Shown here piece after piece: positions 428 to 63,285 of a DNA stretch of 64,000 nt. The notes under the pieces are model-generated. The model ran no database searches. It was not told the DNA's origin and saw only the letters and a list, made by a program, of their open reading frames with translations. The stretch comes from an uncultured Acetobacteraceae bacterium (lineage in GTDB: Bacteria; Pseudomonadota; Alphaproteobacteria; Acetobacterales; Acetobacteraceae). The stretch covers positions 98-64,097 of the forward strand of contig CAYNYQ010000001.1 of the NCBI GenBank assembly GCA_964401305.1, written 5' to 3'. A program made the translations under genes and the position numbers. Each line of letters starts with the position of its first letter. The stretch's first letter is position 1.

Positions 428-1444
428 CTACCGGTCCTGCCCCGGCCCCTCGATCTCTCGCGGCATCTCCCGCGCCACCCTGAACCGCTCGGCCAGCGCC
501 CCCGGCGCCAGCCCTTCCATGGCACGCAGCACGTCCTTGGCCCCCCGGACGATCTCATGCGGGATGACCGGGCGCGGCATCCATCCCAGCTGCGTTGCCT
601 CGCGCCTCCATGCCGCCGGGTCAGGCCTGCCATCCTTGGCCAGCTCCGCGTCCCGCTTCAGGTCGCCGGTGAGTCGCCGCCCCGGCCCGTCCTGCCGCAC
701 CTCCCGGCCCCGGCGGGAGAAGTGCTCGCGAACCCGGTCGGGGATGTCCTGCAACACTGCCGCGCCGGTGATGGCGTGGGCGGTCACATCGGCTCCAAGC
801 TGACGCAGCCGGTCGGCGAGGGCGGCCTGATAGCAGGCCCCAATGCGTTTCACCTGCCCGGACAGCGCCATGGTGTGCAGCGCCCGCACCTTGCCGTCTT
901 GCGTCATGGTGACGTTCGGCACGCTGTAGTGGGTGTGCAGGTCGGGGTCGCCGTGGGTGATGCGCCCATCCTCGAGCATGGGCTTGCTGGTGCCGTGCAC
1001 GGTGGCGGCCCATGTGATGTGGCCGGGCAGCGTGCCGTCCCTCCCGCCAAAGCCCAGCCGCGCCTGCCCGATGACCTTTTCCACCTCGGCCATGGCCTCC
1101 TCGCCGGCGGCACTGTGAGCGTCGGCAAGGGCGGCCTGCTCCTCGGGCGTGCCGAAGGCCCAAGCGACGCTGATGGACTTGTCCGGGGTCAGGATGAAGT
1201 CGTAGGCCGAGATGCCCTCGGCATGGTAGCGCCGCCCCTCGATGCGCTTGCCGTCCAACGTGCGGCCCGCGAGGAGGCAGGCGACCTGGCGCAGAGTGAG
1301 CGGCTGATGGGGGTCGGCCTTTAGCGCTTCGGCAAGGGCAGGGGCCATGTCGGGCCGAAGCGTCGCCGGTTCCGCCGCGAGGTGCCGGGCCAGCGGCATG
1401 GCGGCGGAGGGTGTGGCGGCGGTGACCTTGGCGAACAGGAGCAT
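428..1444 (-). CDS. TrwC/TraI-type relaxase-domain protein, no helicase domain
   Basis: ATG at 1444. DFILTPDKSISVAWAF and HGTSKP..GDPDLHTHYSVPNV align with the TrwC blocks LDLTFSAPKSVS and HETSRERDPQLHTHAVILN. Only 338 aa, and the first Tyr is residue 73. Confidence 0.75.
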   Translation of the reverse strand: MLLFAKVTAATPSAAMPLARHLAAEPATLRPDMAPALAEALKADPHQPLTLRQVACLLAGRTLDGKRIEGRRYHAEGISAYDFILTPDKSISVAWAFGTPEEQAALADAHSAAGEEAMAEVEKVIGQARLGFGGRDGTLPGHITWAATVHGTSKPMLEDGRITHGDPDLHTHYSVPNVTMTQDGKVRALHTMALSGQVKRIGACYQAALADRLRQLGADVTAHAITGAAVLQDIPDRVREHFSRRGREVRQDGPGRRLTGDLKRDAELAKDGRPDPAAWRREATQLGWMPRPVIPHEIVRGAKDVLRAMEGLAPGALAERFRVAREMPREIEGPGQDR

Positions 1445-13277: not shown

Positions 13278-13691
13278 TCAAGTGCCTGCAAGTTCTTTAA
13301 ATGACAGTACGAGCGGATCGGTACGAGGCGCATGGACCTCGCCCCACTGCTCTTCCGAATACACCTGCACGAAGTCCACCTGACCCCGGCGGAACGCCTC
13401 CACCAGTCCGGCCAGATTGTATCCGGTCACCTGCACCCGGACGTCCCGACACTGCAGCCAGACCCAAGCGACATGGCACTGCCCGGCATCGGCCTCCTCC
13501 GCCGCGTAGCCGACGCTGCGGATCTCGGCGATCGGAACCAGCAGCCCTCCCGCCGGCTCGCCGCGGCCGGGGAAGGGGGCGTCGCGGAACTCCACCATGA
13601 CGCTGTCCGGGTGCTCCCGGCCCCATGGCCGGTAGGGCACAGCCTCGGCCCGGCCCTGCCTCTCCAGCCAAGCGGGAAAGCTCTCCGACAT
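13278..13691 (-). CDS. hypothetical protein
   Basis: 137 aa with an ATG start; no motif recognised. Confidence 0.5.
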   Translation of the reverse strand: MSESFPAWLERQGRAEAVPYRPWGREHPDSVMVEFRDAPFPGRGEPAGGLLVPIAEIRSVGYAAEEADAGQCHVAWVWLQCRDVRVQVTGYNLAGLVEAFRRGQVDFVQVYSEEQWGEVHAPRTDPLVLSFKELAGT

Positions 13692-13800: not shown

Positions 13801-13832
13801 AAGGTTCGCAAGAACCTGTAACTGCACCTTTA
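13801..13832 (+). other. candidate oriT (MOBQ type)
   Basis: Inverted repeat AGGTTC-gcaa-GAACCT followed by GTAACTGCACCTT, 15 nt upstream of the relaxase ATG. It resembles the RSF1010 hairpin plus the TAAGTGCGCCCT nick region as I recall it. Confidence 0.45.
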
Positions 13833-13846
13833 GAAAAACCACTCTT

Positions 13847-14932
13847 ATGCCTGAAGCTGCCTTCTACCGCAGCGAGTTCAAGAACCACTCCCGGCGCAGC
13901 CCGCTTTCACCGGAGGCTGCTGCTGCTTACCGGACCGGCTCGAAGTCGGTGGTGAGCCACAGCCCGATCCGCAACATTGCTTACCGCTCCGGGTCCGCCC
14001 TTTTCGACGAGCAGGAGCAGACCGGACACGATTACACGAACCGGGCGCGGCGGATCATTGAGCGCAGCGCCATCTGGGCCCCACCTGGCGCTCCTGACTG
14101 GGCCACTGACCGCCAGCGGCTATGGACCGAGGCGCTGAAGCTCGAGACCCGCAAGAACGCCCGGTGGATGAAGGAGAACATCCTCACCCTCGACTATGGC
14201 CTGAACCGCGACCAGCGATGGGCGGCGGTCGAGAAGTATGCCCGCGACGCCTTCGTCCGGCGCGGCATCATCGTCGATGCCTCGATGCACCGCTACGGCG
14301 CGCTGGTCGAGCCGACCGACGAGGACTTCGCCGAGAAGCTGGCGGAGTGGCAGGGCAGGGGGCATCCCTTCCTCGACGAGGCCACGGCGCTGAAGACGGA
14401 CGCGGTGCATGTCATGGTCGAACGTGCCAAGGACGGCACGCTGCGGGGCTACCGGCTCTACCAGCCGCACGCGCATCTCTCTCTGCTGACGCGCTCGATC
14501 GGCCCCGGCGGCTTCGGGCCGAAGCTGGAGATGATGAACCAGAAGCGCCAACTATTCCTCTGGCGTCAGGCGTGGGAGCAGCACCTCAACGAGGCGCTCG
14601 CCGCCGCCGGGAGCACGGCGCGGGCGGATTGCCGCAGCTACTTCGCGCAGGGCATCGACAAGAAGCCGACCAGGCCGCACGGGCTGGCCAAGCGCCTGAA
14701 AGCCCCGTCGGAAAAAATGCAGAAGCGCATCGCCGAGAACCACGACGTCAGTAGCTGGAATTACGCGCTCGATGTCGCGCGGCGCTCGGCGCGGCTGGTC
14801 GGCCCCATCGCTGGCGCGCTGGCGACGGGTAATCCCATCATGCTCGGCGTGGCGGTAGGTAACGCCGTGGCGCAGGTCTCGGCAGGGCAGGGGAGGGACC
14901 GCCTGCCGCCGCGCTCTCCCGGGGTCTCCTGA
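13847..14932 (+). CDS. MobA/MobL-family (MOBQ-like) relaxase
   Basis: AYRSGSALFDEQEQTGHDYTNR, APDWATDRQRLWTEALKLE, IVDASMH, QPHAHLSLL, GFGPKLEMMN, WRQAWEQHLNEAL and CRSYFAQGI follow the MobA/MobL block order. Confidence 0.8.
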   Translation: MPEAAFYRSEFKNHSRRSPLSPEAAAAYRTGSKSVVSHSPIRNIAYRSGSALFDEQEQTGHDYTNRARRIIERSAIWAPPGAPDWATDRQRLWTEALKLETRKNARWMKENILTLDYGLNRDQRWAAVEKYARDAFVRRGIIVDASMHRYGALVEPTDEDFAEKLAEWQGRGHPFLDEATALKTDAVHVMVERAKDGTLRGYRLYQPHAHLSLLTRSIGPGGFGPKLEMMNQKRQLFLWRQAWEQHLNEALAAAGSTARADCRSYFAQGIDKKPTRPHGLAKRLKAPSEKMQKRIAENHDVSSWNYALDVARRSARLVGPIAGALATGNPIMLGVAVGNAVAQVSAGQGRDRLPPRSPGVS

Positions 14933-15447
14933 TGGTGCGAGGACGCCCTCAGCACCACACCAAAGCCGTGGTGACGACGCCGCCAATGATGGAGGCGGGG
15001 CCAGTGCTGACGGAGGATGACCCCTATCTCGGCCCCGGCGCTCCCTACCGAATGATGCGCCTGGTGCGCGGCAACCGCTCCGCCAAGCGATGCCGCCTGC
15101 GCCCGGCGCAAGGGCCGGGGCATAACCCGAAGTGGGCATACATCTTCGATCTCATCGACGATTTCGAGCGGCACGGCAGCCGCACGGCGCAGAGCATCAC
15201 GATGGTCACGAATGTCGGCACGTTCCAGATCGAGGGCTTCGGCCTCGATGTGCCGGGCGGCCTGTACGAGATGCTCGAGCAGGAACACGTGCTGGAAGTC
15301 GCGGCCTATGACGTGAGGCGGCACGGCACGAAGCCGAGCGGGCCCTACGTCAGCGCCATCCGCGAGGTGCTGGAGGCGCAAGGGAAGCCAGAGCCGCAGG
15401 AAGAACCAGACGAGGGCGAGCGCCACGAAGGGGCGCGAGCCGCGTAG
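14932..15447 (+). CDS. hypothetical protein
   Basis: 171 aa. The ATG overlaps the relaxase stop (TGATG). Confidence 0.5.
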   Translation: MVRGRPQHHTKAVVTTPPMMEAGPVLTEDDPYLGPGAPYRMMRLVRGNRSAKRCRLRPAQGPGHNPKWAYIFDLIDDFERHGSRTAQSITMVTNVGTFQIEGFGLDVPGGLYEMLEQEHVLEVAAYDVRRHGTKPSGPYVSAIREVLEAQGKPEPQEEPDEGERHEGARAA

Positions 15448-15498: not shown

Positions 15499-16431
15499 CT
15501 AAGCGGCCTCCTCCATCTCCTCCTCGTCCGGGGCTTCGGCCTTCGGCTGCAGCGAGTGCAGGAAGTCGGCGGCGCGTTGGGCATGGGCCGAAGCTTGGAA
15601 GATGAAGCGCTTGTCGTTCTTCAGCGCCTTGAGCCATGACGCGATATAGGAAGCGTGCTCCTGCCTCGGGTCCGGCTCGATGCCAAGATCGGCGCAAAGG
15701 AACACGGAACCCAGCTCGGCAACCAGCTCCTCCTGCGCGTAGCCCTCATCGCCGAAGCGCTTACGCCCGAAGTCGCGGTCGAGGCGGCTCGGTGCCTTGG
15801 TCCAGTGCACCAGCTCGTGCAGCGCAGTGCCGTAGTAGGCCTCGGCATCGGCGAACGTCTCGAACGGGGGCATGCGGATGCGGTCTGTGGCCACGTTGTA
15901 GGCTGCGACATTCCCGCCATGCTCGACACTCGCGCCAGTGTTGGCGATGAAGATGTCGGCGGCGGTGATCCGCTCCATGTCGGTCTTGGGCTGCACCGCC
16001 TTGGCGTAGAAGTGCGGGGGCAGGCCGTCGATCTGCTCCACGTTGAAGACGCTGTAGGACTTCAGGAAGAAGATGGAGCGCTCCTCGTCCGTCTCCTCGT
16101 CGCGCCGCTTGATCTTGTCGGCATAGGTGACGGGGCTGGCCCTCTCGCCCTTCCTGACCTGGCCGCCAAGCTCTGCGGCCTGCCGGTAGGTCATCCAGAT
16201 CGGGGCGCTGTATCCCTTCGCCTCCGCTGCCATCCACAGCATGACAACATTAATTCCGCGATACGGAACGGAATTGTGGCGCAAAGGCCGAGTAATTCTC
16301 CCTGCCGCGTGCTCGGCATTCCAAGGCTTCCGCCAAGGTGGCGTTCCCGCTTCCAGTGCTGCGATGATAGCGTCCGTGACCGTCTGATAGATGTCCGCGC
16401 GCTCGGTGGCGGGCTTGCTGATCTTCCTCAT
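15499..16431 (-). CDS. ardC: ArdC-type antirestriction protein (ssDNA-binding N-domain + metalloprotease)
   Basis: ATG at 16431 with a GGAG RBS. PPWRKPW, PYRGINVVMLW, WMTYRQAAELGGQVRKGE and HELVHWT match ArdC/DUF1738 plus the HExxH domain. Confidence 0.85.
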   Translation of the reverse strand: MRKISKPATERADIYQTVTDAIIAALEAGTPPWRKPWNAEHAAGRITRPLRHNSVPYRGINVVMLWMAAEAKGYSAPIWMTYRQAAELGGQVRKGERASPVTYADKIKRRDEETDEERSIFFLKSYSVFNVEQIDGLPPHFYAKAVQPKTDMERITAADIFIANTGASVEHGGNVAAYNVATDRIRMPPFETFADAEAYYGTALHELVHWTKAPSRLDRDFGRKRFGDEGYAQEELVAELGSVFLCADLGIEPDPRQEHASYIASWLKALKNDKRFIFQASAHAQRAADFLHSLQPKAEAPDEEEMEEAA

Positions 16432-17242: not shown

Positions 17243-17749
17243 TCAACCATTGGACAAATCGGCCGCGTCAGCGGCCATGCGTCTGGCTATCCTCTCGAAG
17301 CGGTCGGACGCCCGGCGGAAGGCGTGGAAGGCGTCGCTCATCCCATCAACGGTGCTGAGCCACGGCTTCAGGTCAGGAGCGTTCAGCGCGCCATCGTCGA
17401 TGAAGGCTCGCCACTCGGGGTCGGCGCGCTCGGCCAGCATGAGCAGGTGCCGCATCGCCCGCACCAGCTCGTCGAGGCCCGCCTGCGCGGCCCGCGTATC
17501 GTCGTTCCATGAGTTCAGGTAGATCGCCAGCCCCTGCGCGAAGCGGTGGCAGGCCGTGGAGAGGCGCAGGAAGGCCGCGGTGAGATCTGGTGGGGCAGGG
17601 GAGGGACGGCCCTGTCCCCATCGCTCCACGGCTTCGACCAGCCGCCACAACGCGGCGTCAGGGGCGGGCTCGTCGAGGTCACCGGCGAGCGCATGGCGTG
17701 CGGCGGCAAGGCCAAGGAGTGACGCGAGAAAGGGCCTGCGATGCATCAT
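17243..17749 (-). CDS. secreted hypothetical protein (Tat-like signal)
   Basis: N-terminus MMHRRPFLASLLGLAAARHALA has an RRxFL twin-arginine-like motif followed by AxA. Confidence 0.5.
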   Translation of the reverse strand: MMHRRPFLASLLGLAAARHALAGDLDEPAPDAALWRLVEAVERWGQGRPSPAPPDLTAAFLRLSTACHRFAQGLAIYLNSWNDDTRAAQAGLDELVRAMRHLLMLAERADPEWRAFIDDGALNAPDLKPWLSTVDGMSDAFHAFRRASDRFERIARRMAADAADLSNG

Positions 17750-17814
17750 GCCTGGTCCCCTGACGTTTTGGCCCGAATTTGCACCGACTCCGGGACTCGC
17801 CGCAGGATGGGCGA

Positions 17815-18522
17815 ATGTCCACCGAGCACCTGGTACCCGAGGACCTCCGGCAGCTCTACCACGTCCGGGAGTGGCGAAACGCCGCCGGCGTGCTTTCCAC
17901 GGCCTGCCCGGATGAGTGGAACGACATTATCGAGATTCTGCGTTCCTTCCGCTTGCTCCGCTCGCAGGTCCTTACGGCGGGCGGCGGCCTGTCTCCCATT
18001 TCGCAGGGGATCAACAGCGCCTTCGACGCGCGGGGGTGGAAGGAGAAGAAGTTCGAGACGCGGATCGTCGTCGACGAGACGGAATACAAGAGCCCGACGC
18101 ATCTGGTCGACTGCTTCAAGGGACGCGTCGCGCTGGAGTTGGAGTGGAATAACAAGGACCCGTTCTACGATCGAGACCTGAACAACTTCCGCCTGCTCTT
18201 CGACCTCCGGGCCATCGACGTTGGTGTCATCCTGACCCGTGCCAGCGAGCTGCAGGGCATCTTCGACAGTCTGGGGAAGGGGGCGAGCTACGGGCCGACC
18301 ACGACGCACCATAGCAAGCTCTGGCCACGGATCGAGGGCGGCGGTGGCGGCGGGTGCCCCGTCCTGACGTTCGCCATCACTCCCGCGCTGTACGTCGATG
18401 ACGGGGAGGAGGCGCTGAGGGCGGCCCTTGCTGCGCGGGAGGAGAGGCTCAGCCGCAGCCGGAGAAGGCGCGGGGGCGTGTCGGCAGCGGCGGGGTCTGA
18501 GGACAATGGCGAATCCGCCTGA
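17815..18522 (+). CDS. BglII/BamHI-fold restriction endonuclease-like protein
   Basis: VDCFKGRVALELEWNNKDPFYDRDLNNF parallels the BglII core DFGKRDTLVEVQFSN (D-x8-E-x-E/Q). ATG at 17815 is preferred. Confidence 0.6.
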   Translation: MSTEHLVPEDLRQLYHVREWRNAAGVLSTACPDEWNDIIEILRSFRLLRSQVLTAGGGLSPISQGINSAFDARGWKEKKFETRIVVDETEYKSPTHLVDCFKGRVALELEWNNKDPFYDRDLNNFRLLFDLRAIDVGVILTRASELQGIFDSLGKGASYGPTTTHHSKLWPRIEGGGGGGCPVLTFAITPALYVDDGEEALRAALAAREERLSRSRRRRGGVSAAAGSEDNGESA

Positions 18523-19192
18523 CAAGGCTCGCATGGGCGTCGGCTTCGCGATGTACGTGCTGGAGCACGAGGTGCGGGACGACCGGTTCGTCCGGATCAT
18601 CGACGATATCGCTCGCCTGATCGCATCGTCGGAGGACGCGTGCGAGCGGGCGGTGGCTTCCGGGAACGACGATTTCGCAGACGCTGTGATCGCCACGGAG
18701 ACGGACTATCTGGAAGACCTGATCGGTACGATCTTCCTGATGCTGCAGACCAAGATTCGACGTGTCGGTGAAGCGGCAATGGTTGTGTCGGACGCGCTGG
18801 AGCGTGGCTATGGCGCGGCGGCGAAGAAGTGGGCCAAGCCGCCGGTCGTGAGAGCCGAAGGCGGGGCGTACAACGGAACGCCGCATAGCCTCGTCGAGCT
18901 GGTCTGGGCGGTGGGGAACTACTTTAAACACCGCGACGAATGGTCGTCTGACGTGTGGACGCCGCCTGCAACCATAACGAAGGGCCTCAAGCAGTCCATC
19001 GCTACCCGAACCGTGGTTCAGAGCGTGGGCGTCGTGGAATCGTCCACCGGCAACATGCGGACCGCACTGGAGTTCTTCGGCGTCGATCCTTACTCATCCT
19101 GCGGCAAGCTGGCTCAGGACGTGCAGGCGTGGGCCGACACCCTGCTTGACGATGCGCGGGCCGCTGCGAAGGCGGCACAGGGAACGCCGTGA
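18506..19192 (+). CDS. hypothetical protein between nuclease and methyltransferase
   Basis: 228 aa. ATG at 18506 with a GAGGA RBS, overlapping the end of the nuclease gene. The only notable motif is VGNYFKHRDEW. Confidence 0.55.
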   Translation: MANPPDKARMGVGFAMYVLEHEVRDDRFVRIIDDIARLIASSEDACERAVASGNDDFADAVIATETDYLEDLIGTIFLMLQTKIRRVGEAAMVVSDALERGYGAAAKKWAKPPVVRAEGGAYNGTPHSLVELVWAVGNYFKHRDEWSSDVWTPPATITKGLKQSIATRTVVQSVGVVESSTGNMRTALEFFGVDPYSSCGKLAQDVQAWADTLLDDARAAAKAAQGTP

Positions 19193-19196
19193 AGGT

Positions 19197-19877
19197 TTAG
19201 TCGGCCTCGGCGTACTGCTGGCGCTCCGCTGCCGAATTGTGGGAGTAGGTGGGCCAGTTCGGCGCGTAGCTCTCGTCGGCCTGGTCGCCCCACACGGTCC
19301 ATCCCTTGCGGGCGCCGCGCGCGAACAGTTCGAGCCGGGGAGTGAAGCTGCATGCCTCAATGATGGGGTAAATCTCGTCTGGCTTGCGGGAGTGCTCGCG
19401 CTTGCGGGTCTGGAGGTAGTTCACCTGCGTCCGGCCGGGATCAAGCGTCCGGGCGTTCTTTCCGCGCACCCCGAAGAGGACCAGCTCGGTCACGTTGCGG
19501 AAATAGAACCCGACGCCGCGCCCGTCGCTGCCGCCGTCCTTCCTGATCTTCCGCCAGACGATGTTGGACTTGTAGTCGAAGCCCCACGCCTTCATCACCG
19601 CCAGTCCCTCGGGGAGGAGAGCGTTCGGCACCCACAGATAGAGGTGTGACGGATCGGCGGCGAGCTGCGAGACCGGCAGCTTGGAGATCGTCGAGACGTC
19701 GAGTGTGCCGTACCGGGACAGGCGGCGGTGTTCCGGCGCCATCTTCCCGGTGCGGTTGATAAACTGCCATGGAGGGTCGGCGAGGATCGTGCCGAACTTC
19801 TTCCCGCCGGCGGCGGCGAGGAGATCGGCGGATGGATCAGGCGCGTTCTGCAGTCGGGACACGGCGTAACTCCACAC
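19197..19877 (-). CDS. MT-A70-family N6-adenine DNA methyltransferase
   Basis: ILADPPWQF (DPPW), NVTELVLFGVRG and HSRKPDE are MT-A70 blocks. GTG start. Confidence 0.85.
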   Translation of the reverse strand: MWSYAVSRLQNAPDPSADLLAAAGGKKFGTILADPPWQFINRTGKMAPEHRRLSRYGTLDVSTISKLPVSQLAADPSHLYLWVPNALLPEGLAVMKAWGFDYKSNIVWRKIRKDGGSDGRGVGFYFRNVTELVLFGVRGKNARTLDPGRTQVNYLQTRKREHSRKPDEIYPIIEACSFTPRLELFARGARKGWTVWGDQADESYAPNWPTYSHNSAAERQQYAEAD

Positions 19878-20114
19878 GCGCCGGACCTAGCCGGACCTTC
19901 AACGGAAGGAAAGACTCGCACGGCTTGACTCGATTCGTCCAGCGCATCAGGGGCCTCTGGTTCATAAGCGTCTCAAAAGAGAGTCAGTTGCTGCGGCTTC
20001 CCGCGCGGTCTCATCGGCTCGGTCGAGACGGGTCGGCTGATGACGGGGGAGGGGGGTTCTGCAGGAATATCAGCCGCTTGCCCGTTGGTCGCGACAGGCG
20101 TGTCGTGAGCAGGG

Positions 20115-20810
20115 CTAGAACAACTCATGCCACCGGTTCCCATTTTCGGCGTCCCATCGCCGCGACGTGGTGAGAGCTTTGGCGAGCGTCGGAAAACGCT
20201 GGATGCGGAGTGCGCCGTTGACGCGCTTCTGCAAGGTGAACCCGCTGCGGCGGAGAGGAATGATGCCGCGCCGATAGCGGACATAATCCACCATCTCCAG
20301 TAGGTCGGACGCATCTTCAACACTCGGTTTCTCAATGCTGTACCGGGCGAATTCGCCATGGTAGCGCAGCGCCATGGCATCATAGACACGGGCAGCTAGC
20401 TCCGGCGTTGGCAACAGGCACGTCCGAATCTCTACGCCATCAAGGACAATGGTGGCGTTCCAGCCGCCACGACGTTGGACGATGCCTTTGTACGGCTGCT
20501 GGCTGTGACGCCGCTTCTTCGAGTTGCGCGCATTTTCACGATGCTCACAGAGGCGCAGATTGCAGCGCCGATTATCGAGCGTGTCGCCGTTGATGTGATC
20601 GACATGTTGGCCGGGCTTTGCGCCCGTGACGATCCGGTGCAGCGCGACGCGGCGGCCATTCTTGTGGCGGATGCAGGCGTAGAAGCCGCCATGAAGGCCG
20701 CCCTTCGTGCGGTAGAGCTTTGCGCCGTCGAGTTGCTCGAAGTCGGCTCGGTCGATCTTGGTTAGCAACCCGCCGAAAAGCGTTACTTCGATATACTCGG
20801 CATCGGTCAT
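20115..20810 (-). CDS. HNH homing endonuclease with AP2-like DNA-binding domain
   Basis: LHRIVTGAKPGQHVDHINGDTLDNRRCNLRLC (HNH_3 type), then YKGIVQRRGGWNATIVLDG (AP2-like). ATG at 20810 with a GAGAGG RBS. AT-richer cassette. Confidence 0.8.
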   Translation of the reverse strand: MTDAEYIEVTLFGGLLTKIDRADFEQLDGAKLYRTKGGLHGGFYACIRHKNGRRVALHRIVTGAKPGQHVDHINGDTLDNRRCNLRLCEHRENARNSKKRRHSQQPYKGIVQRRGGWNATIVLDGVEIRTCLLPTPELAARVYDAMALRYHGEFARYSIEKPSVEDASDLLEMVDYVRYRRGIIPLRRSGFTLQKRVNGALRIQRFPTLAKALTTSRRWDAENGNRWHELF

Positions 20811-23130: not shown

Positions 23131-23316
23131 TCAAGCGTTCAGCGCCTGCTCGGCGAAAGCCAGCGCCTCGTTCAGATTGCGGTAGATGCGCGCCACGTTG
23201 CGGTCGGACACGCGGTCGGCCACGACGGACTTCGCCTCGATGCCTGCCTGCCGCAGGTCTTCGAGCGCGGTGCGCAGCGTCTCCATGCGGGTGTGCAGTT
23301 CGCGGTAGCGCATCAT
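23131..23316 (-). CDS. small coiled-coil protein
   Basis: 61 aa, overlapping the stop of the upstream gene. Confidence 0.45.
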   Translation of the reverse strand: MMRYRELHTRMETLRTALEDLRQAGIEAKSVVADRVSDRNVARIYRNLNEALAFAEQALNA

Positions 23317-23903
23317 GGCTTCAGCTCCGCTAGCGCCTGCTCGCGGGCACGGTTCAGCTCGGCCATCGCGTCGTCACTGCCACCCGCGTCGGGATGGCGC
23401 GTCCGGGCCAGCCGACGGTAGGCGGCCTCGATGTGTTCGCGCGTGACATCTTCACCCCGGGGATGACGCGGTGGGATACCTAGGACTTCGCGCCAAGCCC
23501 TACTCGGCGCGGGCAGCGCGGTGAACCCGGAGAACGCCCGGTCGAGCATGTCTCCCGTGCCCCAGCGAGCGATGCCGCGCATCGCTTCGATGGTCTTTGC
23601 AATGGCGTGGATGTTGTGCTCGACCTTATCCCAGTTGTCGCAGGCGAAGCACATCGGCTTGCCCTTGTACGCGAAATAGACAGCCACGCCGGGGTCGTCC
23701 GGTTGTGGTTGGCCGCTCTTCGGCAGGCCGTCGAGCCGCAAGGCAAGGTTTGTCGAAAGCACTTCGTCACGCGCGCCGAGGCGCTCCAACTCGGCGATAA
23801 GGCCATCGCGTGCCTTGCTGAAACCGGTGTCGAAGCGGCTGCGCTCGCGTCGCGCGGCACGGGGGCGACCCATAGGCCACGCAAGGGGAAATGCATGGGT
23901 CAT
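23313..23903 (-). CDS. J-domain (DnaJ-like) phage protein
   Basis: C-terminal IEAAYRRLARTRHPDAGGSDDAMAELNRAREQA contains the HPD motif. ATG at 23903 with a GGGAGG RBS. Confidence 0.7.
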   Translation of the reverse strand: MTHAFPLAWPMGRPRAARRERSRFDTGFSKARDGLIAELERLGARDEVLSTNLALRLDGLPKSGQPQPDDPGVAVYFAYKGKPMCFACDNWDKVEHNIHAIAKTIEAMRGIARWGTGDMLDRAFSGFTALPAPSRAWREVLGIPPRHPRGEDVTREHIEAAYRRLARTRHPDAGGSDDAMAELNRAREQALAELKP

Positions 23904-24112
23904 CGTCCCCTCCCTTCGCAGCACCCCTGCGCCTGCATCCGGTCAGCCCATGACGTGAGGCGGTTCACCTCGCTGCCGGTGCGCTCCTGCCGGTCGCTCA
24001 GCTCCTCGAGCAGGCGACGCTGCCGGTCCTGCTGCGTGGCCATCAGCGCGACGCAGAGCATGGAGGTGATCGGGGCGATGGTCTGGAAGCGGAGAAGCGT
24101 GGCGGGGGTCAT
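23900..24112 (-). CDS. hypothetical protein
   Basis: 70 aa, with ATGA overlaps to both neighbours. Confidence 0.45.
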   Translation of the reverse strand: MTPATLLRFQTIAPITSMLCVALMATQQDRQRRLLEELSDRQERTGSEVNRLTSWADRMQAQGCCEGRGR

Positions 24113-24540: not shown

Positions 24541-24677
24541 GCGCCGCCCCCGCCAAAGATGCTGTAGGCGAGCGCCACAAGCAGGTTGAACGCGGACCAG
24601 AACCAGCGCTGGCCCGCACTGAGGTTGGGCGCGCAGTAGATGGCGCTTAAGAGCAGGAAGAATTCAGCGTTGCTCAC
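24537..24677 (-). CDS. small membrane protein (not in ORF track)
   Basis: The GTG at 24677 overlaps the upstream stop (GTGA), and the stop overlaps the ATG of the next gene (ATGA). Translation VSNAEFFLLLSAIYCAPNLSAGQRWFWSAFNLLVALAYSIFGGGGA. Confidence 0.4.
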   Translation of the reverse strand: MSNAEFFLLLSAIYCAPNLSAGQRWFWSAFNLLVALAYSIFGGGGA

Positions 24678-24961
24678 GCCGCCTCCTTCCGCACCGTCTC
24701 GATGGCGATGCCGTAGGTGGTGAGCACGCGCACGAGGATGGCGACTTCCGGCGGGACGGGATGCCGCCCGGATTCCCAGTGCCAGATCGTGTCAGGGCTG
24801 CGCCCGATGATGTCGCCCAGCTCGGCCTGCGACAGACGGTGCTTGGTGCGGAAGCGGCGAACCGCGCTGCCGGGAATGCTGAATGGCAGGGTCGGCAGGC
24901 TGATCGGGTACTGTCCGACCAGCTTTGCCGACTTCAGGTGAACGCGCCGCTTTGTAGTCAT
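24674..24961 (-). CDS. XRE-family HTH regulator (Cro/CI-like)
   Basis: RFRTKHRLSQAELGDIIGRSPDTIWHWESGRHPVP is a canonical XRE HTH. An AT-rich promoter-like spacer lies upstream (24962..25045). Confidence 0.75.
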   Translation of the reverse strand: MTTKRRVHLKSAKLVGQYPISLPTLPFSIPGSAVRRFRTKHRLSQAELGDIIGRSPDTIWHWESGRHPVPPEVAILVRVLTTYGIAIETVRKEAA

Positions 24962-25045
24962 AAATCAAGCAAGTCGAGTGAGTGAATAAGGTAAACATAC
25001 CGAATCAGTCACATATAAACAAGCGGCAGTTTTGCCACACCTCTG

Positions 25046-25540
25046 TTAGTCCCAGTCGCGTCGCGGCCTGAACACTCCCGCGCCGGGATTGTCGCCGTAC
25101 AGGCCGGAGCCGTCGCCGAGGGGCAGAATGCTGTCGAACAGGCTGCCGCCGTCGCCCGACGCCGACGGGTGCCGGTCATCCATGGGTGACGATCCGCCGC
25201 CGCCCCGGTCCCGGCGTTCGCCCGCATCATCCACGCCGGGGCTGAGGCAGTCGGTCATCCAACACACGCCGCCGAGTAGGACAGCCGTGGCGAGCAATGC
25301 CTGTCCCGGCGTGAAGCCGCCGCGCTGCTCCGGCTGGTAGGTCGGCGCAGGGAGAGGCGCAGGCGCAGACGGTGGCACATAGGCGGCCCGCGTCGCCGGG
25401 GGCGTGTAGGCCGGTGGCACGTAGCCAGTCACCGGTGGGGCAGGGGGGATGTAGCGGTACGCGAGCCGCTGCGACGGCTGCGGTGCGCAGGCCTGCAGCG
25501 TGGCGAGGATGGCGATGCAGGACAGGATGGGGCGGGACAT
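25046..25540 (-). CDS. lipoprotein, Pro-rich linker
   Basis: ATG at 25540 with a GGAG RBS. MSRPILSCIAILATLQAC is a signal peptide plus lipobox, followed by PP-rich repeats and a Gly/Asp-rich tail. Confidence 0.65.
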   Translation of the reverse strand: MSRPILSCIAILATLQACAPQPSQRLAYRYIPPAPPVTGYVPPAYTPPATRAAYVPPSAPAPLPAPTYQPEQRGGFTPGQALLATAVLLGGVCWMTDCLSPGVDDAGERRDRGGGGSSPMDDRHPSASGDGGSLFDSILPLGDGSGLYGDNPGAGVFRPRRDWD

Positions 25541-25551
25541 GACTGATCTCC

Positions 25552-25923
25552 TCAGTTCATGACGGAGCGGATGTGGGAGGGCAGCCGGGCGCGCATGACG
25601 CGCTCGCTCGGGGAGGCGCGGCGGGACGGTGCCGAGACGGCCACCGTGACGCGCTGCGCCTTCAGCGGCTTGGCCTTCTTCGGCAGCTTGAAGCGCGTCG
25701 TCATCGGCGGGTTGAGGCTGTTCGCCATGGCCCGGCACAGAACGGACGCGCCGAACAGGACGGCGAACATGGTCCATGCCTCGTCCGTCGGCAGCATGTG
25801 CTCCTCGGTGTAGAGCGCGACGCCGATGACGATGAACGGCCACATCAGCTTCGAGCCGAACACGCGGCACAGGAAGTAGAGCTGGTAGCGGAAGCTGTAG
25901 CGGGGGAAGAGGAAGCCGAGCAT
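25552..25923 (-). CDS. polytopic small membrane protein
   Basis: 123 aa. Hydrophobic segments LMWPFIVIGVALY and AWTMFAVLFGASVLCRAMA, with a basic C-tail. Starts 3 nt after the ATPase stop. Confidence 0.6.
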   Translation of the reverse strand: MLGFLFPRYSFRYQLYFLCRVFGSKLMWPFIVIGVALYTEEHMLPTDEAWTMFAVLFGASVLCRAMANSLNPPMTTRFKLPKKAKPLKAQRVTVAVSAPSRRASPSERVMRARLPSHIRSVMN

Positions 25924-25926
25924 GGG

Positions 25927-27420
25927 TCAGATGCTCCCCTGCCGAAACTGCGCGGGCATCCACGCCGCCTTCGAGGAGCGCCATGTCTGGCCGCCCTTGA
26001 ACAGCACGGCGTCCACGATGCCCCGGTTGGCACGTCCGCCGTTCCTGAGCGTGGTGAAGTGCGCGGGCAGGACGGGATACTCAATCACCTGCTGCGACGA
26101 GCGGCTGCTTCCGAGATTCCAGTTCTCGCTGCGGCCACGTCCGCCGCCACCGCCCGTTGCGCCCCAGCTATGGTTGCGGTTGTCGCCTTCCCCCTGCCCC
26201 TCGTTCTCGCTGTAGGATTCACGCCACTCTTCGCGCTTGGCGATAGTATCGGCCGCCCACTGGTTCGTATCGACGCAAGAGTTGGCGTGGAAGATTTTTG
26301 TCTGAAAGTTGCCCAGTAGCGCCTTGGCAGTATTCAGCGGGTTGCGGCCGCCCATCTGCTCGGCAACTCCCAAAATATTCTGGGTGAGCCAGACCGTCGC
26401 AGCCCGCGCGCCGCGTGCGGTACTTTGGAATTCCGCGTCGTAGGGCGAGGCGAAGAGATGCCCTTCGTCGGCCCACAGGAACACGGGGCGGCCCCGGCTG
26501 CCGCGCCGCTCGGTGGCGCGCTGCCACAGGTACTTGAAGATGTGCTGCGCGAGATGGCCCGCCTCGTTCCAGACCTTCAGCGGGAAATCGAGGACGATGA
26601 TCGCCCCCTCGTGCGTCATCTCCGGCACGATGGTGAGGTCGGTGCCGAACAGCTCGTGCATCGGCCCGGATAGCAGCGGGGAGAGATCGGCGGACAGCGT
26701 GGCGACCAGGTTGCCCGTGGTGCGCGGATCGGGATTGGGCAGCCGCTTGGTCAGGTAGTCCCGTGCCTGCTCGAAGTCGTGCTGCTTCATGGGATGGACG
26801 GGACCGGCTTTGCACTTCATCAGCGTGGCGTTCATGAAACCGTTCAGGTACGCCATGCCGCTCAGGTCATCCGGCTTCGGCGGGCGCGACTGGATCAGCT
26901 TCAGGAGGTCGGGCAGCGTGATGTCCCCGTAAGCGCACCACAGCACTGCCGAGCCGTGCGCGAGGAACTCGCGCGAGGACTTACCCCAGAAGGGATTGTC
27001 GCCGCCGCCGACGGGCGAGCCGACTTCCCCGGACGCGGTGCGAAGGACATGGGTCAGCACGGCCACGGTGTTGGTGACGGGGTCGGTGTCCGACGCGGCA
27101 GCCATGGCGTAGCGGAGGAAGTTGAAGCGGTAGCGGCCGGAGCCGTCGAAGCGCATCAGGGAGCGCTGGCGACCGGCGAGGCGGCACAGCGCCTCCCAGC
27201 GGTCGGCCTCGTCTGGCTTGGCGCACAGGACGATGCCGCCCCAGCCCGCGCGGGCGAGGGCAAGGGCGATGGCATACCCGCTGGCGCTGGTCTTGCCGGA
27301 GCCGGGGGCCCCGATGATCGCGGTGCCCTCATAGGCATCGCGGACGCGCCACACGTCGCGGCCAAAGCGGAGCAGGGGGGCTTCATGGTGGGAGAGGCAG
27401 GCGCTTGGCCAGAGTCGCAT
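25927..27420 (-). CDS. TraG/VirD4/TraD-like (T4CP-like) P-loop NTPase lacking TM helices
   Basis: Walker A GAPGSGKTS, Walker B RPVFLWADEGHLF, and ARGARAATVWLTQN..GVAEQMGG in the coupling-protein style. The N-terminus is not hydrophobic. Confidence 0.7.
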   Translation of the reverse strand: MRLWPSACLSHHEAPLLRFGRDVWRVRDAYEGTAIIGAPGSGKTSASGYAIALALARAGWGGIVLCAKPDEADRWEALCRLAGRQRSLMRFDGSGRYRFNFLRYAMAAASDTDPVTNTVAVLTHVLRTASGEVGSPVGGGDNPFWGKSSREFLAHGSAVLWCAYGDITLPDLLKLIQSRPPKPDDLSGMAYLNGFMNATLMKCKAGPVHPMKQHDFEQARDYLTKRLPNPDPRTTGNLVATLSADLSPLLSGPMHELFGTDLTIVPEMTHEGAIIVLDFPLKVWNEAGHLAQHIFKYLWQRATERRGSRGRPVFLWADEGHLFASPYDAEFQSTARGARAATVWLTQNILGVAEQMGGRNPLNTAKALLGNFQTKIFHANSCVDTNQWAADTIAKREEWRESYSENEGQGEGDNRNHSWGATGGGGGRGRSENWNLGSSRSSQQVIEYPVLPAHFTTLRNGGRANRGIVDAVLFKGGQTWRSSKAAWMPAQFRQGSI

Positions 27421-27424
27421 CGTT

Positions 27425-27447
27425 GCCGTCCTTCTGTTGAGGACGGC
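27425..27447 (-). promoter_or_regulatory. leader hairpin overlapping the Shine-Dalgarno of the ATPase gene
   Basis: 8-bp stem GCCGTCCT/AGGACGGC with a 7-nt loop. On the mRNA, AAGGAC lies in the 3' arm a few nt before the ATG. Confidence 0.4.
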
Positions 27448-27543
27448 GGGCCGGTCGCGGTTATGATGGTGTCAGGACGATCGTCGCCTGGTCAATGGAA
27501 TTCTGCTAAAGGCACGCTCCTTATCAGGAGGCCCGATATCATC

Positions 27544-27996
27544 ATGGCCGGAAAGAAGGATGGCGGGGCGGCTGAAGAGGTCGACACGGCCGCGGCACTG
27601 AGACAGTTGCAGGCGCTTCAGAAGGCTCACCTGACTGCAGGCATAGCGTCCCAGCCCGGCATTGGGTTGGGGATAGGGCTGCTCGCTAAAGCGATGGTGG
27701 CGCTGCTGGGAGGCGGCGTGGGCATAGTTGAGGCAAAGCCGCGCGGCAGGCCAGTCAGCGAGAAGACCGCGTTGGATTTTCAACATGCTCCCGAGGGGAA
27801 GAAGACCTTTGCAGCCAATCTCAAGCGGGAACGACTGCGTGCTGGTTTGGGGCAGGCGGAGTTGGCGGAGCGGGCGGGTCTGAGTCAGTCGCACGTGAGT
27901 CAGCTGGAAAACGCGAAGTGGGGGCCGAGGCTGGACACCGTACAGGCCCTTGCACGCGCCCTCGGGTGCCAAGCTCACGATTTGTTGAAAATGTAG
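27544..27996 (+). CDS. XRE-family HTH regulator with hydrophobic N-terminal segment
   Basis: ATG at 27544. The C-terminal LKRERLRAGLGQAELAERAGLSQSHVSQLENAKWGP is an XRE HTH. The N-terminal part has GIGLGIGLLAKAMVALLGGGVGIV. Divergent from 25927..27420. Confidence 0.7.
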   Translation: MAGKKDGGAAEEVDTAAALRQLQALQKAHLTAGIASQPGIGLGIGLLAKAMVALLGGGVGIVEAKPRGRPVSEKTALDFQHAPEGKKTFAANLKRERLRAGLGQAELAERAGLSQSHVSQLENAKWGPRLDTVQALARALGCQAHDLLKM

Positions 27997-57816: not shown

Positions 57817-58049
57817 ACGTTAGTCCTCCGCCCCTCGATGATCCAGCGATGCGCCTCGGTCATCGCGGCGTCGAGCGTGGGGAAGATGCCGTCCGTGCCG
57901 ATCTTCGCCTTCCCGCGCTGCTTGGGGGAGAGCTTCAGGCAGCGCACCACGGCGGTGCCGTCCTGCGCCTCGGTGATGCGGAACGCGCGACGCGTGATCT
58001 CGTCGGTGAACATGAAGTCGGACTTCGGCGCAGGCTTAGGCAGTGACAT
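57813..58049 (-). CDS. hypothetical protein
   Basis: ATG at 58049 with a GGAGGA RBS is preferred over the track start at 58088. Confidence 0.5.
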   Translation of the reverse strand: MSLPKPAPKSDFMFTDEITRRAFRITEAQDGTAVVRCLKLSPKQRGKAKIGTDGIFPTLDAAMTEAHRWIIEGRRTNV

Positions 58050-58491
58050 GGGCTTCCTCCGTGTCGGTTGGTGGCAGTAGGTGTTCATTGGGGAAGGGCA
58101 GCTCGAAGCCGAACTGGGCGTAATGCGCCCTGATCCGCGTCATGAAGTCCTCGCATTCGGTGGTGGTGTATTGGGCCGTCGATTTCAGGACGACGACATC
58201 GTTGCCGGAGATGCCCCGGCGAATGGTCTTCAGGCCGAATTCCTGTTTCAGCATGTCCTTCACCTCCTCAGGTGAGAGGAGCTGTCCTGCTTCGAGGTGG
58301 GCTTGCTGGACGGCAGCGAAGAAGGGGCCGTGCATGAAGCGGTTCTGCTGGCAGCTCCGACGCTTCCCAAGCAGCTCGATGGTGATGCGGACGCGCTTCC
58401 CGGCGAAGTGCGAGAGAAGGATGCGAACCTGATCCGCCTTGCTGAAGCGGCCCTGCTCGGTGATCCTTCCCTCGAACTCGCACTTGGTCAT
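58036..58491 (-). CDS. NinB/Orf-like recombination mediator
   Basis: GKRRSCQQNRFMHGPFF and LKSTAQYTTTECEDFMTRIRAHYAQFGFELPFP parallel lambda NinB RNRSLDQNRKLW and QSTSRMRVGEFAELLELIQAFG. Confidence 0.5.
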   Translation of the reverse strand: MTKCEFEGRITEQGRFSKADQVRILLSHFAGKRVRITIELLGKRRSCQQNRFMHGPFFAAVQQAHLEAGQLLSPEEVKDMLKQEFGLKTIRRGISGNDVVVLKSTAQYTTTECEDFMTRIRAHYAQFGFELPFPNEHLLPPTDTEEAHVTA

Positions 58492-62112: not shown

Positions 62113-63285
62113 ATGAATGAAGGTTCTATCATCAAAAAGGTAGCGGTCGGAGCGGTCGTCATCATCGCGGTCATCGTCGCCGCGCTGTCGTCCATGCTCT
62201 TCCAGACCAACGACGCCGGGTACGTGCAAGTGAAGCAGGCCGCCGGAACGGGCGAGATGACGGTGCGCACCACGCCGGGCGTCTATGCGCAGATGTTCGG
62301 TGACATCCACGAGTACAAGATTTCGGACGTCTACGATTTCAACACGGACGATGAGCAGATCATCGTTCGGTTCAACGATGCCGCCACGGCACGCATCTCC
62401 GGCCAGATCAAGTACCGGCTTCCCGTGACGGCGGCGGGCATCCTCAAGATTCACGAGGATTTCCGCAGCTTCGAGGCGGTGCAGTCCGATCTCGTGCGGC
62501 AGGTCGTCGCGGCGAGCCTGAAGCAATCTGCCACGCACTTCGGCGCGGAGGAGGTCTATTCGACCCGCCGCTCGGACTTCATCGACCTGGTCAACGCTCA
62601 GATCAAGAGCGGCATCTTCGCCACGTCCTATACCGAGCGGGTCCGCAAGGACGAGGACGGCAACAACTTCATCCAGCGCATCGTGGCGGTGCGCCTGAAC
62701 GAGGACGGCAAGCCGATCATCTCCGAGCCGTCGGCGTTCGACCGCTACGATGTGGACCTGATCCAGCTCGTCATCAACGACATCGATTTCGACGACAAGA
62801 CCGACGAGCTGATCGCGAAGCGCAAAGAGGCCGAGCAGGAGCAGGTCGTCGCCAAGGCGAAGGCCGAGCGTGCCAAGCAGGACGCCATCACCGCGCAGGA
62901 GCAGGGTAAGGCCAACGTCGCCATCGCCGAGGCCGAGGCGCTGGTGATCAAGAAGCGCGCCGTGATCGAGGCCGAGAAGGAACGCGAGGTCGCGGAGCAG
63001 CAGGCGCTGAAGGCCGAAGAGGAGAAGAAGGCCATCATCGCTCGCGGCGAGGCCGAGGCCCGCGCCAACGCGCTGAAGGTGACGGCTGGCCTGACCCCTC
63101 AGGAGAAGGCCCAGTTCGACAAGGAGACCGCGATCGGTGTCGCGGCCGAGCTGGCCAAGGTCCAGTTGCCGAAGCTCATGGTGATCGGCGGGAGCGGGTC
63201 CCAGTCCGGGCCGGTCAACCCGTTCGATGCGGTGGGGCTGGAGTCCTTCATCCGCATCAGCAAGGGGCTGAGCAAACATGAGTAG
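62113..63285 (+). CDS. SPFH/Band-7 (flotillin/prohibitin-like) membrane protein
   Basis: N-terminal TM VAVGAVVIIAVIVAALSSMLF and an SPFH-like core (GYVQVKQ....GVYAQMFGDI...). A long AEAEA/EAEKE flotillin-type coiled coil follows. Confidence 0.75.
   Translation: MNEGSIIKKVAVGAVVIIAVIVAALSSMLFQTNDAGYVQVKQAAGTGEMTVRTTPGVYAQMFGDIHEYKISDVYDFNTDDEQIIVRFNDAATARISGQIKYRLPVTAAGILKIHEDFRSFEAVQSDLVRQVVAASLKQSATHFGAEEVYSTRRSDFIDLVNAQIKSGIFATSYTERVRKDEDGNNFIQRIVAVRLNEDGKPIISEPSAFDRYDVDLIQLVINDIDFDDKTDELIAKRKEAEQEQVVAKAKAERAKQDAITAQEQGKANVAIAEAEALVIKKRAVIEAEKEREVAEQQALKAEEEKKAIIARGEAEARANALKVTAGLTPQEKAQFDKETAIGVAAELAKVQLPKLMVIGGSGSQSGPVNPFDAVGLESFIRISKGLSKHE

Follow-up and report, generated by a model that had tools for sequence, protein, structure and literature searches.

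The subject of this analysis is a three-gene operon on the minus strand, at positions 25046-27420 of a 64,000-nucleotide stretch of DNA from an uncultured Acetobacteraceae bacterium (hereafter the window), which covers nearly all of a circular replicon best described as a phage-plasmid. The first two genes, encoding a soluble ATPase (gene i) and a small membrane protein (gene ii), probably constitute a two-piece type IV coupling protein (T4CP) for conjugative mobilisation, in which the motor lacks a transmembrane domain (TMD) and an anchor would be supplied in trans. This reading is preferred because gene i is predicted to adopt a T4CP fold, its family is devoid of N-terminal transmembrane (TM) helices, a membrane partner is encoded directly downstream, and the family is linked to relaxase genes. 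A preliminary description, made from the sequence, had offered a split coupling protein serving the relaxases of the element as one of two possible roles, and this proposal is supported for genes i and ii. It had also treated the three genes as one unit; the unit that is conserved consists of the ATPase and its membrane partner, often with a divergently transcribed XRE-type regulator, and the third gene, encoding a putative lipoprotein (gene iii), is a lineage orphan.

The ATPase and its family

Gene i (25927-27420, minus strand) encodes a 497-aa protein whose translation contains GAPGSGKTS, RPVFLWADEGHLF and ARGARAATVWLTQN, the Walker A, Walker B and sensor motifs. The intact Walker A motif together with VFLWADEG marks a P-loop nucleotide-binding domain (NBD) of the FtsK/HerA/VirD4 clade, and 32 aligned homologues all keep residues K43, D318, E319, R336 and Q347. 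No TM-like segment is detected by hydropathy, and the structural model begins straight with the NBD; the earlier characterisation of gene i as a P-loop NTPase without N-terminal TM helices is borne out by both translation and hydropathy. The AlphaFold2 model, built from the 32 homologues, is confident (pLDDT 83.8, pTM 0.81) and shows, between the strands bearing Walker A and Walker B, a helical insertion (residues ~101-258) that corresponds to the all-alpha domain. In Foldseek comparisons the best matches of the model are the soluble parts of T4CPs, namely TrwB-deltaN70, Cag-beta and DotL (probability 1.0), with E = 6e-10 and a template-modelling score of 0.63-0.67 normalised to the target for TrwB-deltaN70 over ~500 alignment columns. 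HerA and the R388 VirB4 homologue give E-values four to five orders of magnitude weaker than those of the T4CPs, and FtsK is also well below. As modelled, the gene i ATPase has a T4CP fold, and at the sequence level the Pfam profile TraG-D_C scores 23.7 bits with gene i against a cut-off of 22. Homologues of gene i carry PF12696, PF10412 and PF02534.

The family to which gene i belongs is large and discrete and is unnamed or only generically annotated; a search of 1.84 billion representatives at E <= 1e-30 puts it at 1,685 or more clusters at 50% identity, and it ranges over Alphaproteobacteria, Verrucomicrobiota, Planctomycetota, Bacteroidota and others. An N-terminal TMD is absent from all 13 homologues inspected (491-626 aa), and their extra length is accounted for by a low-complexity loop rich in G, S, N, W and R. 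In gene i this loop spans residues ~407-437 (window 26112-26202), is rich in G, S, N and R and, modelled as disordered, connects two beta strands on the C-terminal side; in many homologues it grows to more than 100 residues (e.g., P0005, P0017, P0022, P0025). Gene i is not a VirD4-type coupling protein, as it has no N-terminal TMD in the same polypeptide, and fits the recognised subclass of T4CPs lacking a TMD.

Natural fusions of two types occur in the family (P0177, P0181, P0208; P0178, P0202, P0223, P0240, P0183). One joins an XRE-type helix-turn-helix (HTH) domain to the ATPase and to one or more C-terminal TM segments, sometimes with extracellular repeats, and the other joins an N-terminal HTH domain through a long Pro/Ala-rich linker to the ATPase. 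In P0177, P0181 and P0208 the TM segment or segments are fused to the C-terminus of the ATPase, in the order of the two genes, which supports a functional tie between the motor and a membrane segment. The fusions as a whole suggest from sequence that regulator, motor and anchor are functionally linked.

The membrane partner

Gene ii (25552-25923, minus strand) encodes a 123-aa protein proposed to anchor the ATPase in the membrane in trans. It had been credited with two to three hydrophobic segments, and hydropathy confirms two, at residues ~17-35 and ~49-67, and no third. The two hydrophobic helices are accompanied by a basic linker, a strongly basic tail (13 K/R versus 1 D/E) and the conserved C-terminal motif RVTVAV..PSRRASPSE..M.ARLP..I..VM, for which the alignment of partners gives the tail consensus ...V.VAV..P.R.ASP.E..M.ARLP..L..LM; the end of the motif can be summarised as ...RLPxxLxxL or ...RLPxxIxxL. 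A word-indexed homologue search with gene ii returned the protein itself and one 88% relative and nothing more, and the family was recovered by gene position and local jackhmmer, which showed gene ii to be homologous to the downstream genes of eight other elements, including those of Belnapia, a JGI contig, Skermanella and Falsiroseomonas (E 1e-25 to 1e-44). Scans of PHROGs, PADLOC, NCBIfam and Pfam returned nothing for genes ii and iii.

The position of the partner gene is a consistent feature of the family. A small membrane protein gene directly follows the ATPase gene, often with a 4-nt ATGA overlap, in all ten contexts inspected by annotation, which are a Belnapia plasmid contig, the S. 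rosea phage-plasmid, an 83-kb JGI phage-like contig, S. mucosa pSM-4, Acuticoccus p4, Nitrosospira multiformis plasmid 1, three chromosomal islands and the window. Among 77 further loci, at least 54 have a downstream open reading frame (ORF) with two or more TM segments, again frequently overlapping the ATPase stop by ATGA; this count is a lower bound, as the simple 'first start after stop' caller erred at six or more verrucomicrobial loci that in truth hold a 294-aa membrane and J-domain protein starting at +22 to +29. This second type of partner, in which 4-5 TM helices are combined with a C-terminal J domain (HPD) in ~294 aa, occurs at L048:8717-9601 and 23 other loci, mostly from Verrucomicrobiota. 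An LPxx[LC]xxL-type C-terminal motif is widespread among the partners.

Genes i and ii are separated by a spacer of 3 nt (...ATC TGA CCC ATG...) and genes ii and iii by one of 11 nt (...TGA ggagatcagtc ATG...), each with a Shine-Dalgarno sequence of the GGAG type, in agreement with the spacing and common strand given in the preliminary description. All three ORFs are real by the ORF check of the window, and the same three genes are called independently on identical public contigs. Their GC content at third codon positions (0.86, 0.97 and 0.84 for genes i, ii and iii) is typical for coding sequence at 65% GC. Genes i and ii also share a reading frame, with the TGA and a single codon (CCC) between them (window 25924-25929), and read-through of the gene i TGA would yield an ATPase-anchor fusion resembling the natural ones. 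Programmed read-through from gene i into gene ii was rejected as a general mechanism, as most homologues overlap by ATGA and have the two genes in different frames.

Linkage to relaxases

The neighbourhood survey that the preliminary description had called for was carried out by clustering the ORFs of 80 genomic loci and ranking the clusters by recurrence. A relaxase (MobA_MobL or TrwC) lies within 10 kb of the ATPase in 38 of the 46 loci with complete 10-kb flanks (83%). Over the 80 loci, the recurrent neighbours are MobA_MobL relaxases (36 loci) and their ~155-aa accessory protein (36 loci), ParA (23), small tyrosine recombinases (22), RPA-type replication initiators (21), TrwC relaxase-helicases (20) and ArdC (20). 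The median distance from ATPase to relaxase is 1.9 kb for relaxases of the MOBQ family and 0.3 kb for TrwC, which is usually divergent and immediately beside the ATPase. In sphingomonads the ATPase, partner, relaxase and accessory genes follow one another on a single strand, and Nitrosospira multiformis plasmid 1 has the order mobC, relaxase, two further genes, ATPase and membrane protein.

The type of partner tracks the type of relaxase. A 192-aa partner type is found at 20 loci, 19 of them with a MOBQ relaxase and none with TrwC, and the J-domain partner type is found at 24 loci, one with a MOBQ relaxase and 15 with TrwC, which in these loci mostly lies ~0.3 kb upstream of the ATPase in divergent orientation. 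Recurrent VirB4-like or other mating-pore genes were found in none of the 46 complete neighbourhoods, as judged from the recurrence clusters and a Pfam scan of clustered or selected large ORFs; the large neighbour ORFs scanned are cargo (MmeI, SNF2, GmrSD, kinases, TIR, RHS). The preliminary description had reasoned that homologues confined to complete type IV secretion system (T4SS) and relaxase loci without small partners would make gene i a plain T4CP; the homologues sit with relaxases and with a membrane partner, and T4SS genes are missing beside them.

The phage-plasmid and its mobilisation genes

An ATPase identical to gene i is found on contigs of exactly 65,118 bp from several sequencing runs, and because their start points differ at the same length, the element is a circular replicon of ~65.1 kb. 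A siphovirus-type module is present in full, with small and large terminase, portal, Mu-F, prohead protease, HK97-type capsid, connectors, a 1,121-aa tape measure, a GDSL-domain tail protein and lysozyme. The plasmid and transfer genes are RepA_C, ParA, a TrwC protein, a MobA_MobL relaxase with accessory genes, and ArdC, and further genes encode a BglII-type restriction-modification pair, an MT-A70 methylase and GapR. The phage-plasmid label follows from the siphovirus module and RepA/ParA together with the lack of any integrase in the element annotation. T4SS or mating-pore genes were not found in the window. The capsid is 52.5% identical to that on the 100-kb Skermanella rosea plasmid CP086115, which also bears the closest plasmid-borne ATPase (49.9%), and 40% identical to the capsid of Azospirillum phage Cd. 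Relatives of the ATPase were found neither in 50,697 INPHARED phage records (tblastn) nor in 2.9 million IMG/VR contigs (pattern scan).

The presumed client of the coupling protein is a MOBQ (MobA_MobL) relaxase at 13847-14932 (plus strand), identified by Pfam on an identical contig and by a local family HMM (hidden Markov model; E = 5.8e-52). It is followed by a 171-aa relaxase accessory protein at 14932-15447 (plus), whose position is kept in all contexts and whose match to the accessory HMM is weak (6e-5), and it is divergent from a 137-aa protein at 13278-13691 (minus) of a recurrent relaxase-accessory family (local HMM E = 8.5e-10). About 20 nt upstream of the relaxase start, at 13802-13828 (plus), lies a site resembling an origin of transfer (oriT), in which the inverted repeat AGGTTCGCAAGAACCT is followed by GTAACTGCACC, so that the site reads AGGTTCGCAAGAACCT-G-TAACTGCACC. 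In related elements the corresponding place upstream of the MOBQ relaxase is likewise occupied by an inverted repeat and then (G)TATAAGTGCAC, and the site resembles the nic region of the RSF1010/R1162 oriT (TAAGTGCGCCCT). Association with a relaxase and an oriT, the latter as a candidate site, is found for the gene i family as well as in the window.

A second relaxase of 338 aa at 428-1444 (minus), next to the RepA_C gene that spans the window start, has a TrwC (MOBF) relaxase domain only and lacks the helicase; it may represent a second mobilisation system or a replication-related HUH nuclease. An ArdC-type antirestriction protein or zincin metallopeptidase is encoded at 15499-16431 (minus), as annotated on an identical contig, and ArdC is a typical companion of conjugatively transferred DNA. 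Other cargo lies at ~17500-20500, 58036-58491 (minus) and 62113-63285 (plus), and this set comprises the BglII-type endonuclease with an adjacent unannotated 219-aa ORF, the MT-A70 methylase, an HNH protein, NinB and an SPFH/Band-7 protein.

The putative lipoprotein at the end of the operon

Gene iii (25046-25540, minus strand) encodes a 164-aa lineage-specific putative lipoprotein and starts at an internal ATG of a longer ORF. The features by which it was originally described as a lipoprotein are present, with CIAILATLQAC matching a PROSITE-like lipobox pattern, Cys18, an Arg in the n-region, and a mature part rich in Pro, Gly and Asp that is arranged as a Pro-rich linker and a Gly/Asp tail; an internal hydrophobic segment at residues 81-99, also conserved, had gone unmentioned. 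A single homologue (59% identity) was found among 5.8 billion clusters, and it retains the lipobox pattern. It lies in the same order, gene ii, gene iii, XRE, on a 908-bp contig whose flanking coding parts are ~90-95% identical to the window. The two genes differ by 40 synonymous and 49 non-synonymous codon differences, with third-position differences dominant. By this comparison gene iii is a real but fast-evolving gene, real because third-position differences dominate and fast-evolving because its identity is 59% against ~90-95% in the flanks.

Sister phage-plasmids do not carry gene iii: in the JGI contig the XRE gene comes next after the partner, and in S. rosea the place is taken by an unrelated 170-aa protein. 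The gene is also absent from all other ATPase-partner contexts inspected. Gene iii thus occupies a variable slot at the end of the operon, outside the conserved module, as presumably co-transcribed lineage-specific cargo. At a guess, which we hold with low confidence, it could be an envelope protein of the entry-exclusion or superinfection-exclusion type, given its lipoprotein signal, its fast divergence and an analogy. The analogues invoked for such a role are TrbK/TraT and Cor/Llp.

Operon boundaries and regulation

The operon has the position that had been given for it, between a lysis/moron block and an XRE gene and divergent from a second XRE gene. The divergent regulator is a 150-aa XRE protein with a C-terminal HTH domain (27544-27996, plus strand; Pfam HTH_31/HTH_3), beyond which lies the lysozyme/moron block, and the downstream XRE gene (24674-24961, minus strand; 95 aa) opens the early-gene block that follows. 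A terminator-like hairpin with a T-run comes immediately after the stop of gene iii, at 25023-25038 (minus); it is weak evidence, as three such sites were found in the region against 1.9 expected. It falls within a spacer of 84 nt (24962-25045) before the next XRE gene that is AT-rich, which is unusual in 65% GC DNA, and this spacer and hairpin suggest that the three genes are transcribed as a separate unit and that the XRE gene after them is expressed from a promoter of its own. Downstream of the three genes, the early operon also encodes a ~200-aa protein (23313-23924, minus) with a C-terminal J-domain-like motif, RHPD, whose Pfam DnaJ match (E = 4.5e-4) is below cut-off, a curious neighbour given the J-domain partners found elsewhere in the ATPase family.

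The 8-bp leader hairpin that had been described as burying the Shine-Dalgarno sequence of gene i is present at 27425-27447 (minus) as the inverted repeat GCCGTCCT-N7-AGGACGGC, which covers the AGGA Shine-Dalgarno sequence and ends 4 nt before the ATG. It lies in the control region between the ATPase operon and the divergent XRE gene (27421-27543), and the same arrangement is seen in Belnapia, S. rosea and the JGI contig. The conserved box GCGACCGGCC precedes the repeat in the window, and hairpin and upstream box (TGCGACCGGCC) recur in three related elements (L009, L005, L007) despite an ATPase identity of only 50-56%, with CCGTCC...GGACGG over the Shine-Dalgarno sequence; the element was not found in the wider ATPase family. 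A hand comparison of two stems shows one pair to be G-C in the window and A-T in Belnapia. As the folding energy of the whole leader is not exceptional (z = -1.2), the case for the hairpin rests on conservation. The control region has no match to the sigma-70 consensus, which is not informative for this taxon. The HTH domain of the divergent XRE protein is 45-49% identical to those of the divergent XRE proteins of Belnapia and S. rosea, and such a gene accompanies the ATPase-partner pair in the closest relatives. The leader repeat could act as an RNA hairpin limiting translation or as an XRE operator.

The possibility that the trio merely interrupts a cI/cro-type switch of the phage was rejected, as the unit of XRE gene, leader, ATPase and partner is also found on the 20.8-kb Belnapia plasmid. 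No phage genes were seen in the ~19 kb of that plasmid inspected, which argues that the unit is a portable module.

Proposed function and alternative explanations

In the proposed mechanism, gene i would be the cytoplasmic motor and receptor, consisting of the NBD and the all-alpha domain and presumably hexameric. Gene ii would be a two-helix inner-membrane anchor that replaces the N-terminal TMD carried in cis by VirD4 and TrwB, with the basic cytoplasmic tail and the C-terminal ...RLPxxIxxL peptide likely docking the motor. The pair would belong to a mobilisation module together with the RSF1010-like oriT, the MobA/MobL relaxase and its accessory proteins, the TrwC-type relaxase and ArdC. 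Because the element is without mating-pore genes, a helper is invoked, and the coupling protein would hand the relaxase-DNA complex to the T4SS of a co-resident conjugative plasmid or integrative and conjugative element (ICE). A tailed temperate phage-plasmid would in this way gain a second, conjugative transfer route. The divergent XRE protein and the leader inverted repeat over the Shine-Dalgarno sequence probably regulate the pair and keep its expression low.

Several observations weigh against a two-piece coupling protein. Among the profiles whose use had been proposed, TraG-D_C exceeds its cut-off as stated above, but TrwB_AAD_bind reaches 19.7 bits with gene i, just under its cut-off of 20.5, and T4SS-DNA_transf gives no match for gene i itself, with some homologues matching. 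NCBIfam scores for gene i are far below cut-off (SXT_TraD, 18.5 versus 366; CD1115, 13 versus 250), sequence similarity of the family to characterised T4CPs is marginal, and since the family profile matches no PDB sequence at E <= 0.01, the link of the family to T4CPs rests on fold comparison. A plain T4CP role does not account for the HTH fusions, for the G/S/N-rich loop or for partners with a J domain. Relaxases detectable by local HMMs are missing from 8 of the 46 complete neighbourhoods, and in the window the pair is not beside the relaxase: it lies 11 kb from the MOBQ gene, at the head of the phage early/immunity region. Gene ii as the membrane anchor of the ATPase is a deduction from sequence, in which physical contact would follow from synteny, motif conservation and fusions only, and a compatible T4SS in the hosts is an assumption.

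The tight spacing of the three genes, their good Shine-Dalgarno sequences and the placement of the terminator-like hairpin only after gene iii could also be read as a sign that all three proteins form one envelope-spanning machine, in which a cytoplasmic ATPase and an inner-membrane protein are joined by a lipoprotein that extends to the periplasm or outer membrane, with gene iii in this lineage as a functional partner such as an entry-exclusion or docking factor. The order of gene ii, gene iii and XRE is the same in one related contig, and the signal and lipobox, hydrophobic segment and C-terminal motif of gene iii are conserved. This arrangement is nevertheless very unlikely, as the search of 5.8 billion clusters gave a single homologue of gene iii, no other ATPase-partner context contains the gene, the two sister phage-plasmids included, and it diverges much faster than its flanks. 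The second role put forward in the preliminary description, a membrane-tethered FtsK/HerA-like translocase of a prophage immunity region that aborts infection or expels or blocks incoming DNA, draws on the position of the operon between two XRE genes beside the lysis/moron block, on a weak PADLOC match of the ATPase to mad8 (E = 0.0016, 16 bits), on HerA defence ATPases among the lower-ranked fold matches and on the defence cargo common on the same islands. The mad8 match is not significant, the other mad genes are absent, and it was rejected as chance or superfamily-level similarity, leaving no significant PADLOC match. In E-value, HerA trails the T4CP folds by four to five orders of magnitude, with FtsK also below them, and no effector domain (nuclease, SIR2, TIR) is consistently attached. 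The neighbours are relaxosome and plasmid genes, with a relaxase within 10 kb in 83% of complete neighbourhoods, a partner type that co-varies with relaxase type, and ATPase, partner and relaxase in a single gene string in sphingomonads and Nitrosospira, all of which makes a defence or exclusion function highly improbable.

The lack of mating-pore genes in cis in all 46 complete neighbourhoods, the distinctness of the family from canonical T4CPs in sequence, the extra activities suggested by the HTH DNA-binding and J-domain variants, and the relaxase-domain-only TrwC beside RepA in the window would fit a DNA motor that works independently of any T4SS. Such a motor could be a self-sufficient translocase, as in actinomycete TraB/FtsK-type conjugation, or an intracellular motor acting with relaxases in rolling-circle replication, dimer resolution or phage-plasmid segregation. 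It is, however, very unlikely, as being without mating-pore genes is the definition of mobilisable elements, and in diderm hosts the DNA must also cross the outer membrane, for which two inner-membrane proteins provide no conduit. The RSF1010-type oriT and ArdC point to transfer by a helper T4SS, replication, partition and packaging are already provided for in the window by RepA, ParA and terminase, and nothing positive points to a T4SS-independent role. A bolder idea, and one that deserves very little credence, is that the ATPase and its anchor, whether two-TM, 4-5-TM or J-domain, are the core of a minimal DNA-export route with MOBQ/MOBF relaxases and no classical mating pore, which in phage-plasmids might cooperate with phage functions. 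Such a route would explain the absence of mating-pore genes in cis, the sequence isolation of the family, the expandable G/S/N-rich loop and the HTH and J-domain variants.

Implications for mobility typing

If genes i and ii are indeed a split coupling protein, the gene i family would be the coupling device of many MOBQ/MOBF mobilisable plasmids and islands, and the separation of motor and anchor would let a ~65-kb phage-plasmid, mobilisable plasmids and islands ride the conjugation machinery of another element. Four of the seven plasmids carrying the gene i ATPase are typed 'non-mobilizable' in PLSDB/MOB-suite (records including NZ_CP086110.1 and NZ_CP133484.1), and the two of these four that were inspected both have an annotated MobQ or MobA/MobL relaxase and a T4CP-like gene. 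The 18.9-kb Nitrosospira plasmid is typed 'conjugative', with no mating-pore genes among the 16 of its 19 annotated features inspected. Standard typing tools would therefore miss the family if this reading is true, and surveys may undercount mobilisable elements. Conjugation functions in phage-plasmids have been reported as sporadic only (10.1101/2025.11.07.687105), and a phage-plasmid with an oriT, two relaxases, a T4CP and ArdC would be able to spread horizontally both in virions and by conjugation. The pair would also offer a Gram-negative system for the function of the T4CP TMD, as in it the TMD has already been separated from the motor in nature.

Comparison with known systems

The preliminary description had known of no named system of this composition, yet a TMD-less T4CP with a small membrane protein belongs to a recognised subclass. 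T4CPs lacking a TMD are listed in reviews, with the example of TraJ of pIP501 and its two-TM protein TraI (PMC7434980, PMC7431656, PMC12857230). The combination of a soluble T4CP with an adjacent small protein of about two TM segments is found in genes i and ii as in pIP501, where a TMD-less coupling ATPase is likewise accompanied by a separate small two-TM protein proposed as its anchor; the likeness is one of description, and no pIP501 protein was returned by any of the library or PDB searches. The pIP501 system is Gram-positive and self-transmissible, with both genes inside a 15-gene T4SS operon, whereas embedding in a complete conjugative T4SS operon is seen neither in the window nor in related loci. 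The pair described here is found on diderm mobilisable plasmids, integrative and mobilisable elements (IMEs) and a phage-plasmid, all without T4SS genes, and its anchor gene comes right after the ATPase gene, the anchor carrying a conserved C-terminal motif of its own.

TrwB of R388, VirD4, Cag-beta and DotL share with gene i the Walker A/B motifs, the TraG-D_C signature and relaxase linkage, and give the best structural matches over the whole soluble part, NBD and all-alpha domain included. Gene i differs from them in having no N-terminal TMD, in an identity of 10-13% in structural alignments, in the failure of the family profile to reach them by sequence, and in the extra low-complexity loop near its C-terminus. 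The HerA/FtsK defence ATPases (SIR2-HerA, DUF4297-HerA, MADS mad8) resemble gene i at a lower rank, by the fold of the ASCE/FtsK-HerA superfamily and the weak mad8 match, and differ in their much weaker structural match and in that gene i has no effector partner and relaxosome genes as neighbours.

Mobilisable elements with their own T4CP are known from CloDF13 MobB (PMC7431656) and the Mesorhizobium IMEs (PMC8627217). With MobB and the virD4-like genes of these IMEs the pair would share a design in which an element supplies coupling protein and relaxase itself and takes only the mating pore from elsewhere. MobB differs in that its own three-helix TMD is essential for mobilisation and its relaxase is of the MOBC type (PMC7431656), as opposed to a TMD in trans and MOBQ/MOBF relaxases here. 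The R27-type pair of TraG and TraJ offers another parallel, as this T4CP needs an adjacent polytopic protein of ~200 aa with up to five TM segments (PMC7434980), comparable to the 4-5-TM partners of the gene i family, but TraG is membrane-integral in its own right and belongs to a full conjugative system (PMC7434980). Set against these systems, what is new is the gene i family, its dedicated downstream anchor with a conserved tail, the phage-plasmid setting, and the spread of the pair over diderm mobilisable plasmids and islands.

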